The translations under genes and the position numbers were made by a program. A stretch of DNA of 64,000 nucleotides from an uncultured Chlamydiales bacterium. GTDB lineage: Bacteria; Chlamydiota; Chlamydiia; Chlamydiales; JAAKFR01. Shown piece by piece: positions 23,344-25,381 of this stretch (position 1 is the stretch's first letter; each line of letters begins with the position of its first letter). Under the pieces are notes generated by a model. It searched no databases. It had not been told where the DNA came from and saw only the letters and a program-made list of their open reading frames with translations. Location: contig OY969414.1 in NCBI GenBank assembly GCA_963699155.1, positions 1,323,757 to 1,387,756 on the forward strand, written 5' to 3'.

Positions 23344-23367
23344 AACACCTAAACAGATAAAATAAAT

Positions 23368-23469
23368 GCAACTATTCAGACTCTCTCTGTGGTCTCTGTG
23401 AGCTCAGTGGTGTTTTTTTTATTTTACCACAGAGAGCAGAGAGCACACAGAGAACAGGTGAATATTTAC
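23368..23469. mobile_element. MITE-like element upstream of lepB
   Basis: Terminal IRs gcaactattca / tgaatatttac; internal CTCTGTG/CACAGAG palindrome; flanks aaataaat / aaagaaat (7/8 match). Confidence 0.55.
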
Positions 23470-23701
23470 AAAGAAATTACCATGGCAGGTTTCGACTTTA
23501 AAGTATAGATGTTGAAAATTGTGTACGCTATTTGTTCGCTATCCGAACCTAAATTTGGATGCCTTTAACCCTCTGCAGTGTGGAAAGGTTGTTTATAACT
23601 TGTGTGCAAAAATTAGGATTCTCTTAAAAATCTTTTTCAGTCAGCTTGTTTTGAGTCGGTTATGGCAAAAATCCAGAAGAGGATTTTTTGTTTACAATAG
23701 C

Positions 23702-24307
23702 TTATGAACCCTTGTCGATCCAGTTATAGACAGTTTTTGCAGCGGCATCGATTCCAGTTGGGTTTGTATACATTAAACTGAGTCCCTTAAGAACACCCAA
23801 GGCAGCTCCACCCGCCAATGCTCTGCCAAATTGCGCCCAATTTACATTATCTAATAGTCCTAAATTAAGACCTCCCGCAACTCGTTGAATCTCTTCTTCT
23901 GAGAGTTCTTCAGTAGCAAGAGGGGGCAGTACAAGATATTGTCTTTCTGCCGTTTCTTCAAAAACTTCCACTGACCAATCATTGGGTAGTGGTGCTCCAC
24001 ATTCTTCTTTTAAAACTTTTTTTGGATCAGCAAATAGTCTTTTTTTAAGCTCTGGGTCTTGTAATGCTTTCAGAGTGATTTGCAAAAGAGGCTTCTTTGG
24101 ATTTTCTTTGGCAAACTGTTCAATCTGTTCTCGCTGTTTGATATCAGGAATGACAAGATAGATTTTTTTTGGTTCGGGTTCGATGACAATCAACTTCAAT
24201 TGATCCTCAAACTTCAACCCAAGCTCTTTACTAAGAACGCCCTTTGGGTCCTTTTTGACTCTTTCTCTGAAATTTCTATCGATCAAAAAAGAAGAGATGT
24301 TACCCAT
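23702..24307 (-). CDS. NHLP-leader peptide precursor with tandem leader domains
   Basis: D.NFRERVKKDPKGVL...YLVIP, then KALQDPELKKRLFADPKKVL...VFEETAERQYLVLPP...EELSEEEIQRVAGG and a 55-aa core. Confidence 0.85.
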   Translation of the reverse strand: MGNISSFLIDRNFRERVKKDPKGVLSKELGLKFEDQLKLIVIEPEPKKIYLVIPDIKQREQIEQFAKENPKKPLLQITLKALQDPELKKRLFADPKKVLKEECGAPLPNDWSVEVFEETAERQYLVLPPLATEELSEEEIQRVAGGLNLGLLDNVNWAQFGRALAGGAALGVLKGLSLMYTNPTGIDAAAKTVYNWIDKGS

Positions 24308-24358
24308 AAAAATTATTTTATTTCAGAGGAACTTTTCCTTCAAGAACAAACAGCGGGC

Positions 24359-25381
24359 TTATTTCTGCGGAACTTTTCCTTCAAGCACGATCGAGGGGTC
24401 TTCTTGAGGGGAAATGAGGAAGCGATAATGGCTTAAGGGGTTTTGGAGCTGTGCCAGCTCTTCATTGGGGATCTGCAGGGAGACGCTTTCTCCATTACTT
24501 GTTGTAGTGGCGGGAAGGGAAAGGAGATTGCCGAAAAAAGAACCCTCTTCTTCAGCGACAAAGACAAAAAATTGTCTGAAGTAGATCGGTGATTTCAGAG
24601 AGAAGAGAAGGCCCTCGGGGGTGCGCTCACCCTGGCCCATCAATTGTGGTGCTCTTTTGGGGAGGGTTGTTCGAGGGGATTTTGCCTCGAGGCCAGAGTC
24701 GACCACGCGGGCTCTGGCACTTCCGATCTTTCCTTCAATTTCTAGCCAATAGGGGAAGTAGGCTGGAAACCAAGCTCCCTCTGGTTGGGCATCGGGCAGA
24801 TAGATCTCGATCGTCTTCCGAGAAAGATCGCTTCCATCAGAGGGCCAGCGTGCTTTATAAACATGAAAAGAGGCTCGAGGAATCACTGCGCCGTTGACCG
24901 TCAGCCGAGGATTCCAGAGGGGACGGTGGTCGGCTTTGTTGTGTCCAGGAGGGAGGCCCACCCGGCGCCGATCACTTTCGTCAACTTCGCGAAAGCGGAG
25001 GTTGAGGAGTGTCGTTAAAAAAGTATTCGAGGAGCTCATATCGATCCATCCCTGATGGGTGAAAGAGAAGGTCTCTTCAAACTGACCCGTCTCCAAATTC
25101 ACCTGGGAGATAATCCAGGAGGTATGTCCGGGTGCGCCGCTCTCAAACCAGCTCTTCCATGGCATCGGCTTTTTCGAAAAACTGGCTGCTGGAATCGAAA
25201 CCTCTTCGAGAATGATCCGTTGGTCCTGCCTTTCCTGGATATGGAAGAAAGTAAATGTTTTATTTTGCTCGATCACAACGTAGCTACTCGGATGGGCTTC
25301 AGCCAGTTTTCCTTTGAGCTGAAGATCAGCCAGGAGGGTGGTCGAGAGCATGAGGAGAGTCAAAAAGAAGATTCGAAACAT
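24359..25381 (-). CDS. Conserved chlamydial hypothetical protein (CT021-like by position)
   Basis: Signal peptide; lies between lepB and rpmE2 as in Chlamydia; FPYWLE motif. Confidence 0.7.
   Translation of the reverse strand: MFRIFFLTLLMLSTTLLADLQLKGKLAEAHPSSYVVIEQNKTFTFFHIQERQDQRIILEEVSIPAASFSKKPMPWKSWFESGAPGHTSWIISQVNLETGQFEETFSFTHQGWIDMSSSNTFLTTLLNLRFREVDESDRRRVGLPPGHNKADHRPLWNPRLTVNGAVIPRASFHVYKARWPSDGSDLSRKTIEIYLPDAQPEGAWFPAYFPYWLEIEGKIGSARARVVDSGLEAKSPRTTLPKRAPQLMGQGERTPEGLLFSLKSPIYFRQFFVFVAEEEGSFFGNLLSLPATTTSNGESVSLQIPNEELAQLQNPLSHYRFLISPQEDPSIVLEGKVPQK

Follow-up and report, generated by a model that had tools for sequence, protein, structure and literature searches.

The closest described relatives of the gene reported here belong to the NHLP/NHLM system, in which peptide precursors carry nitrile hydratase-like (NHLP) leaders. 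In the available part of the account of this system (Haft, Basu and Mitchell 2010, PMC2887384), such precursors have a double-glycine (GG) leader end followed by a variable core, lie far from the modification and export genes, co-occur with a trio of export genes and form scattered paralogous families of 1-12 copies in 14 species. Fused tandem pairs are described there only for the Burkholderia-type family TIGR03795, with examples in Delftia acidovorans and Acidovorax avenae, where two whole precursors are joined, with a cyclodehydratase linked to them and a two-peptide product as the interpretation (PMC2887384). Proteusins (polytheonamide-type, with radical S-adenosylmethionine (SAM) epimerases) also have a long nitrile hydratase-like leader. 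In class II GG bacteriocins, the leader usually has 15-30 residues. Here, we describe a minus-strand gene from an uncultured Chlamydiales bacterium that encodes a 201-residue precursor with a doubled NHLP leader. It lies in a window of 64,000 nucleotides (nt), meaning the whole stretch of DNA analyzed (contig OY969414.1, positions 1,323,757 to 1,387,756). The precursor is a genuine and well-formed member of the NHLP precursor/NHLM exporter system in a doubled-leader form, and we consider it reasonably probable that it yields an unmodified hydrophobic peptide that would be cut by a C39 peptidase after Gly146, exported and active on membranes.

Analysis of the list of open reading frames (ORFs) and their translations revealed an uninterrupted frame with an ATG start (Table 1). 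The whole protein scores 93.3 bits against the NCBIfam profile TIGR03793 (NHLP leader), above the curated cut-off of 50.9, over two separate stretches. When the two halves are scanned separately, residues 76-146 reach 67.7 bits (E 5.9e-19) over profile positions 8-77 of 77, and residues 1-75 reach 33.6 bits (E 2.7e-8) over positions 15-65 of 77, a score below the cut-off. Repeat 1 stops past a YLVIP strand, about 20 GG-free residues connect it to repeat 2, and the GG-type motif lies where the family-wide similarity stops, with a variable core after it. The original prediction of two consecutive NHLP-like domains, with a double-glycine motif closing only the second, is borne out by these scans. 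Contrary to the fused NHLP-Burk pairs, which likewise hold two nitrile hydratase-like leader modules in one polypeptide, the order here is leader-leader-core, the first module has neither a GG end nor a core of its own, and the TIGR03795 profile gives just 18.7 bits against a cut-off of 41.

Using 102 tandem-NHLP sequences, AlphaFold2 generated a model of the precursor with a mean predicted local distance difference test (pLDDT) value of 78 and a predicted template modeling score of 0.72. In the model, each NHLP repeat packs three short helices into a bundle and adds a beta hairpin, with 10-residue blocks across residues 11-130 averaging pLDDT values of 89-97, and the core lies below 50. Considering the TIGR03793 E-values together with a pLDDT of about 90 over most of residues 11-130, the two-repeat architecture is far beyond what chance would produce. 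Within the PDB, the model comes closest to the alpha chains of nitrile hydratase (3vyh_A, E 7e-5, TM-score 0.40), and the nuclear magnetic resonance structure of a proteusin precursor (8tb1) is a weak structural match (E 1.3). The Pfam family NHase_alpha (PF02979) matches the precursor at 58.3 bits in two stretches, positions ~111-173 of 184, a sub-region of the enzyme, being matched once per repeat. As a nitrile hydratase alpha subunit, the protein was rejected: with 54.8 bits it stays far below the TIGR01323 cut-off of 249.85, and it lacks the metal-binding Cys cluster, having a single Cys in all 201 residues. Judged from its sequence, the protein is a tandem-NHLP precursor and not an enzyme. 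Repeats inside one protein are 36% identical and those of different proteins 29%, over 48 columns that are too weak a basis to date the duplication; in a free tree of the repeats, built on the same 48 columns, the N/C label switches 54 times over 204 tips.

Repeat 2 ends at residues 133-146 as ...EELSEEEIQRVAGG, and among the 102 tandem-NHLP proteins conservation is 90% or higher at L140, G145 and G146. The leader end fits what we take to be the LSxxELxxIxGG pattern, with L-12, S-11, E-8, I-7, V-4 and GG. A count of the composition upheld the original description of the 55-residue core as Cys-free and Gly/Ala-rich, and gave 5 Ser+Thr, a net charge of +1 and six small-xxx-small motifs, along with an amphipathic C-terminal stretch. 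Scanned by itself against NCBIfam and Pfam, the core matches no family. A tail of the form W-I/V-x-x-(D)K..G(K) is shared by this core and several paralogue cores, and the core has a W-I/V-x-x-G/K-like tail in common with paralogues and with a metagenomic protein, P0014 (37% identity). The proposal that the core is bacteriocin-like stands as a resemblance and not as a family assignment, given that both Bacteriocin_IIc (PF10439, 17.9 bits, cut-off 27.1) and the CTB family (NF038167, 17.6 bits, cut-off 32) stay below their cut-offs. What the precursor shares with class II GG bacteriocins is a GG leader end with the spacing of acidic and hydrophobic residues, a cationic amphipathic core of about 50 residues that is Gly/Ala-rich and Cys-free, the probable export by a C39 ATP-binding cassette (ABC) transporter and the lack of a maturase; it differs in its 146-residue leader, in the sub-threshold profile scores and in a Gram-negative-type tripartite exporter.

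The genome consists of a single contig of 2,399,326 base pairs (bp) and is rated 100% complete. Scanning it with TIGR03793 gave 31 repeat matches, one of them weak (E 0.35, six stops), and the remaining matches fall in 17 ORFs at 14 separate places. Two repeats are found in 13 of these ORFs (168-201 residues) and one repeat in the other four (114-133 residues), and 15 of the 17 leaders end in GG, AG or DG. The cores, of 22-55 residues, are hydrophobic or amphipathic, with 0-1 Cys and net charges from -1 to +3, and Shine-Dalgarno-like sequences lie upstream of most of the genes. In the second paralogue of the window, the leader ends as LQQISAG/G and is followed by a hydrophobic core of 46 residues. 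The 17 copies compare with the 1-12 reported in 14 species in the earlier survey (PMC2887384). Nif11-type leaders, sought as alternative substrates, were not found in the genome. The gene had been called an orphan, which holds locally, no machinery lying beside it, and fails at the scale of the genome, where 16 further NHLP precursors occur; since precursors far from their machinery were already noted by Haft et al., a local orphan state is known for the family. The suggested search for double-leader paralogues is answered by 13 doubled-leader genes in total. Directly beside three of the paralogues lie ORFs of 102-128 residues with 2-3 predicted membrane segments, candidate immunity genes from hydropathy only.

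Two genes for C39-peptidase ABC transporters are present in the genome (PF03412, 129.6 and 98.3 bits), and both are located inside NHLP-bacteriocin export cassettes. Cassette A comprises a TolC-like/OEP outer-membrane channel of 540 residues, an HlyD adaptor, ABC1 and ABC2; in cassette B, which has the HlyD adaptor, ABC1 and ABC2, no outer-membrane channel was seen. The peptidase/permease/ATPase profile TIGR03796 (cut-off 853.3) scores 910.8 bits in cassette A and 903.6 bits in cassette B. The adaptor profile TIGR03794 (cut-off 156.2) scores 199 bits in A and 143.3 bits in B, and the ABC2 profile TIGR03797 (cut-off 709.4) 685.6 bits in A, for a protein of 1000 residues, and 770.8 bits in B. 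The export trio of the NHLP/NHLM system thus co-occurs with the precursor in one genome, with TIGR03797 in cassette A and TIGR03794 in cassette B below their cut-offs. The peptidase domain of cassette A keeps Gln/Cys/His/Asp (QMEAVECGAAAL...NHFLVVEG...NDPA), which we take to be the catalytic residues of C39 peptidases. Cassette B may be partly degenerate, and one single-leader precursor lies 2.4 kb from it. Taken together, the 16 additional precursors and the two cassettes with C39 ABC transporters and HlyD proteins support the original proposal that the system is dispersed and works in trans.

The search for modifying enzymes gave a different outcome. No match to YcaO, LanC-like or PqqD (RiPP recognition element (RRE) domain, where RiPP stands for ribosomally synthesized and post-translationally modified peptide) came up in searches of the genome. 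Each of the 11 radical-SAM ORFs scores as a housekeeping enzyme, namely MtaB, MiaB, MqnC, an MqnE-like protein, RimO, HemW, HemN, LipA, two RlmN-like proteins and EpmB. With no RiPP radical-SAM, YcaO, LanC or PqqD/RRE gene in a 100%-complete genome, the earlier assignment to the proteusin type is not sustained, and maturation in trans beyond leader cleavage finds no candidate enzyme in the genome. The precursor resembles proteusins in its long leader and in the weak match to 8tb1, and differs from them in the missing RiPP radical-SAM gene, in a core that is not proteusin-like and in the doubling of the leader. Relative to the NHLP/NHLM system, the differences are the doubled leader of 146 residues, the environmental chlamydial host and the failure to find a thiazole/oxazole-modified microcin (TOMM), lanthipeptide or radical-SAM maturase in the genome. 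Because no maturase was found and the cores are poor in Cys, leader cleavage and export without further modification seem to be the simplest reading, and the peptide is probably exported unmodified, in trans.

In the mechanism that we propose, the 146-residue leader would fold as two NHLP modules and, in the cytoplasm, prevent the hydrophobic 55-residue core from aggregating and from acting. The C39 domain of an NHLP-bacteriocin ABC exporter would recognize LSEEEIQRVAGG, with which the second module ends, and cut after Gly146. The likely exporter is that of cassette A (2.20 Mb), where the catalytic Cys is kept; its ABC1/ABC2 pair, together with the HlyD-type adaptor and the TolC-like channel, would expel the core across both membranes. 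With no modifying enzyme involved, the product would be an unmodified, class-II-bacteriocin-like amphipathic peptide, acting on the membranes of competitors or possibly on those of the host compartment, and the same exporters would serve all 17 dispersed precursors, this one among them. The locus thereby offers a clear, testable candidate pair of substrate and exporter.

A profile of the 13 doubled-leader paralogues was searched against 1.84 billion representative proteins. It retrieved 7242 proteins at E<=1e-3, of which 1922 reach E<=1e-10 and 24 reach E<=1e-30. Among the best 150 representatives, which include at least 11 proteins from the source genome, 145 have two repeats, one has three, three have four and one has a single repeat; the repeats were counted with a hidden Markov model (HMM) built from half-domains of these sequences, and the query profile favors doubled forms. 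The original prediction had held that NHLP precursors normally have a single leader; since 149 of the 150 best representatives carry at least two repeats, the doubled leader is instead common in sequence space. Examples include proteins of Calothrix (MDJ0799792.1, 325 residues, four repeats) and Usitatibacter (HET7547058.1, 208 residues), both entered at NCBI as 'NHLP leader peptide family RiPP precursor', which share with this protein two or more NHLP repeats, a GG end and a short core, and differ in that they are just 20-40% identical to it. The cores of the database proteins range from hydrophobic and Gly/Ala-rich to Cys-rich, Arg/Trp-rich and Gly/Tyr-rich. A look-up with the 201-residue protein returned only itself among 775 candidates, its word index being too coarse for a fast-evolving family, and a search for similar loci with an alignment of four sequences gave just two weak and uninformative ones (a Cytophagales metagenome-assembled genome and a Rhizobium scaffold). 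The doubled-leader form is widespread in databases, and a literature search on NHLP in Chlamydiae and on tandem NHLP leaders found no printed description beyond Haft et al. 2010 (PMC2887384, available in part). Leaders of two to four NHLP modules seem to be a common and unremarked architecture, one that bears on leader recognition and that filters on leader length or precursor size would miss in genome mining for RiPPs and bacteriocins.

Relatives within the phylum were surveyed in a sample of 400 genomes, where kin are not independent, many assemblies are drafts and one genome (G005) was not scored. With NHLP defined as TIGR03793 at E<=1e-5 and the exporter as TIGR03796 at E<=1e-100, NHLP was found in 51 of the 400 genomes and the exporter in 67: both occur in 37, NHLP alone in 14 and the exporter alone in 30. 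The exporter is present in 37 of the 51 NHLP-positive genomes, versus 30 of the 349 NHLP-negative ones. In family f3, whose genomes measure 1.0-1.2 Mb, none of the 29 genomes has NHLP. The two genomes of the same genus, G147 and G322, both contain NHLP genes (8 in one, 13 in the other), all single-leader, in frames of 90-141 residues. Other members of the order do have doubled leaders, with one such precursor in G315. In G114, five adjacent doubled-leader genes (201-223 residues) are divergent from an operon of TolC-like, TIGR03794, TIGR03796 and TIGR03797 genes, with no maturase in the annotated stretch; two of the five cores were translated, and both are long, hydrophilic and rich in Ser/Thr/Gly/Asp. 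In G159, a doubled-leader precursor of 164 residues, with the Cys/Ser-rich core LSACGGFCTDSSSG, heads a TOMM-type cluster; next to it come a fused TOMM cyclodehydratase (TIGR03882 + TIGR03604), SagB, HlyD, ABC1 and ABC2. Because of these two clusters, doubled leaders are seen to be physically linked to this type of exporter in chlamydial relatives, in one case with a maturase and in the other with none in the annotated stretch.

The G159 cluster also bears on the possibility that the gene encodes a true RiPP, whose core would be modified (e.g., epimerized, methylated or hydroxylated) before export, by an enzyme of an unrecognized family binding one of the NHLP modules. That doubled leaders can serve maturases is seen from the G159 precursor, which has a TOMM cyclodehydratase and SagB as direct neighbors. 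A second docking site might be provided by the additional module, and around cassette B there are several ORFs without a family match. The classical role of NHLP leaders is to recruit maturases (Haft et al. 2010, PMC2887384). Contrary to the Cys/Ser-rich G159 core, however, the cores of the source genome have 0-1 Cys and few Ser/Thr, the doubled-leader genes of G114 sit beside an exporter with no annotated maturase, and the 100%-complete genome yielded housekeeping radical-SAM genes and no match for YcaO, LanC-like, PqqD/RRE or DUF4135 (the last a weaker result, discussed below). A modified product is in our view quite unlikely, and we retain the unmodified peptide as the preferred reading.

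The gene lies between IleRS and the 647-residue LepB (Peptidase_S26) on one side and a CT021-family protein, L31 and PrfA on the other. The CT021-family neighbor matches PF24683 at 145.9 bits, and in a protein-atlas look-up CT021-like clusters are mostly found in Chlamydiota. The order ileS-lepB-CT021-rpmE-prfA presumably corresponds to CT019-CT023 of Chlamydia trachomatis. None of the flanking ORFs is a radical-SAM, YcaO, LanM or peptidase-ABC gene, in agreement with the original prediction that no maturation or export machinery lies nearby. Comparison of the lepB-CT021 gap shows that it measures 1016 bp in the source genome (G000), where it contains the NHLP gene, and that it is empty in G322 (same genus, ~290 bp) and G037 (same family, ~230 bp). 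In G324 (same family), the gap of ~850 bp holds an unannotated ORF of 107 residues, and in G147 (same genus) the block is rearranged beside CT021. A tblastn search at the loci of these four relatives found no NHLP-like sequence. The GC (guanine plus cytosine) content is 40.1% in the NHLP gene and 49.4% in its flanks, and the 17 NHLP genes average 41.0% versus 47.5% for the genome. The 41-nt copy of the 3' end of the CT021-family gene fits a footprint at the upstream edge of an insertion, and the spacer towards lepB, which aligns partly with the empty spacer of G322, fits ancestral intergenic DNA. Given the empty spacers of relatives, the low GC content, the junction copy and the spacer alignment, the sequence comparison supports the arrival of the gene as a low-GC insert in the lepB-CT021 gap, within a conserved chlamydial block as first proposed. 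The lepB/CT021 spacer may be a recurrent insertion site. The 107-residue ORF of G324 looks like an ATPase fragment by sequence appearance.

Such an insertion could also be a non-functional or non-secreted remnant, either a recently inserted and decaying copy or an uncleaved cytoplasmic nitrile hydratase-like protein. Besides the low GC content, the weak translation signals, the GG end lost in two paralogues and the single-leader forms of the congeners G147 and G322 would suit a remnant, as would the lack of any identical or near-identical protein among 5.8 billion clusters. The frame is nevertheless intact, both repeats are present, no hallmark position of the leader is missing and the GG motif is complete; the leader is modeled confidently, paralogues and P0014 share the tail motif of the core, and the genome has a catalytically complete exporter. 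One Cys, no metal-binding cluster and 54.8 of the 249.85 bits required speak against a nitrile hydratase-like role. We regard a remnant as very unlikely, in favor of a precursor of an exported, unmodified peptide.

Several observations weigh against that preferred reading. On the side of the exporters, the ABC2 of cassette A falls slightly under the TIGR03797 cut-off, Ser replaces the catalytic Cys in the C39 domain of cassette B (QMESIESGAAAL), the HlyD protein of that cassette is short (281 residues) and below the TIGR03794 cut-off, and 14 of the 51 NHLP-positive genomes, many of them drafts, have no exporter at E<=1e-100. Regarding modification, the failure to find known maturase families leaves room for a maturase of another kind, and the absence of a DUF4135 match in the genome is a weak result, its control being positive nowhere. 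For the peptide itself, the sub-threshold matches to bacteriocin families lie partly over the GG leader end, Bacteriocin_IIc is matched in only one of the 17 paralogues, no 19-residue segment of the core exceeds the transmembrane threshold used, and there is no small membrane ORF, a possible immunity gene, at this locus, which may be a further difference from class II GG bacteriocins. Two of the 17 paralogues have no GG-type end, and some members of the family may be decaying. As to expression, promoter-like sites around the gene are no more numerous than in shuffled sequences, no clear Shine-Dalgarno sequence lies upstream, and a look-up of sequencing runs for the locus listed no RNA run and one soil-metagenome DNA run holding 0.21 of the words. 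A terminator scan around the gene likewise gave nothing above shuffles.

The target of the peptide is a further point at which readings diverge. With the same processing, peptides released into the inclusion lumen could instead insert into inclusion or host membranes of a eukaryotic host, as pores or remodeling factors. The chlamydial lineage and the CT021-family neighbor, the few bacterial competitors in an intracellular niche and the presence of F-box proteins, typical of host-manipulating symbionts, are compatible with a host target; so is the distribution of NHLP, found in 51 of 400 phylum genomes and in none of the 29 of family f3, and the 17 diverse hydrophobic cores suggest diversifying pressure. 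The small membrane ORFs beside some paralogues would rather suit self-immunity to a bacteriocin, and peptides exported by C39 ABC transporters are known mostly as antibacterial or signaling molecules. A host target appears rather unlikely to us, and the preferred reading keeps competitors' membranes as the main one, with the host compartment as a secondary possibility. More speculatively, and with rather low probability in our view, the doubled leader may be an adaptation of this chlamydial lineage and no relic, the first module, devoid of a cleavage site, serving as a chaperone or second docking handle for a diversifying arsenal of 13 genes inside a host cell, where the two congeners searched have none. 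Very hydrophobic, unmodified peptides would then be made safely and passed to a type-I-like exporter, with co-infecting bacteria or the inclusion or host membrane as targets, a chlamydial route of peptide secretion that was not met in the literature searched.

Chlamydiae are studied mainly for type III secretion effectors. On the basis of the 17 precursors and two exporters found here, and of NHLP in 51 of 400 genomes and in 0 of 29 in the family with 1.0-1.2 Mb genomes, many environmental chlamydiae probably also secrete small peptides through a cleavage-export system with multiple substrates. The interest of the present case rests on a lineage-specific expansion, with 13 doubled-leader genes in a single chlamydial genome, on the apparent lack of a maturase and on the role that such peptides would have in an intracellular bacterium.

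Table 1. Location of the precursor gene, its parts and related features. Plain positions are those of the window; C1 positions refer to the source genome, and L positions to loci of relatives.
Feature	Position	Strand	Basis or remark
Complete gene (stop included), 201-residue tandem-NHLP precursor	23702..24307	-	ORF translation and TIGR03793 match
NHLP repeat 1, residues 9-60	24128..24283	-	TIGR03793; stops short of the cleavage motif, without GG end
NHLP repeat 2, residues 76-146	23870..24082	-	TIGR03793; full length, double-glycine end
Predicted C39 recognition/cleavage motif LSEEEIQRVAGG, residues 135-146	23870..23905	-	sequence reading; cut expected after Gly146
Core peptide, 55 residues, residues 147-201	23705..23869	-	composition, hydrophobic moment; amphipathic tail ending NWIDKGS
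Second tandem-NHLP paralogue, 190 residues	8872..9444	+	TIGR03793 at C1:1332652-1333059; translation, alignment
Promoter-like site TTGAAG-17-TAAAAT	24315..24343	-	consensus scan; just upstream of the start codon
Junction copy (41 nt) of the 3' end of the CT021-family gene (24359-24399)	24318..24358	.	direct repeat, 78% identical
NHLP-lepB spacer	23344..23701	.	aligns partly with the empty lepB/CT021 spacer of G322
Imperfect inverted repeat (45 nt) in the NHLP-lepB spacer	23367-23470		71% complementary
Export cassette A	C1:2198513-2206495	+	TolC-like/OEP, HlyD adaptor, ABC1, ABC2
ABC2 of cassette A, N-terminal extension	C1:2203493-2204440	+	~310 residues
Export cassette B	C1:568183-573394	-	HlyD adaptor, ABC1, ABC2
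C39 domain with Ser for Cys, cassette B	C1:570393-573394	-	QMESIESGAAAL
Candidate immunity ORF	C1:897162-897548	-	hydropathy
Candidate immunity ORF	C1:1509572-1509949	+	hydropathy
Candidate immunity ORF	C1:2176019-2176327	+	hydropathy
Two adjacent F-box proteins	C1:576185-578674	+	454 and 373 residues
Class-D beta-lactamase-like gene	C1:2197071-2197844	-	202.2 bits, cut-off 250
Doubled-leader cluster of G114 (C46)	L063:12654-15973		five genes
TOMM-type cluster of G159 (C3)	L064:2990-14283		headed by the precursor
ORF of 107 residues in the lepB/CT021 gap of G324 (C10)	L054:5351-5674		unannotated

The genes around the cassettes are unrelated to them and comprise kdp genes, a redoxin, a class-D-beta-lactamase-like gene, transposases, SerRS, RibD, AAA_14/DUF4143 and F-box proteins. 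The two F-box proteins are adjacent, eukaryote-like and lie a few kb from cassette B; the beta-lactamase-like gene, below its cut-off, is found beside the redoxin just upstream of cassette A. The N-terminal extension of the cassette A ABC2 has no Pfam match; similarly long forms of ABC2 (966-990 residues) occur in G114 and G159, and an atlas lead from the extension to cyclic nucleotide-binding (cNMP) domains is weak (score 0.91, 133 shared features). The imperfect inverted repeat of the NHLP-lepB spacer is rich in CACAGAGA/TCTCTGTG units.

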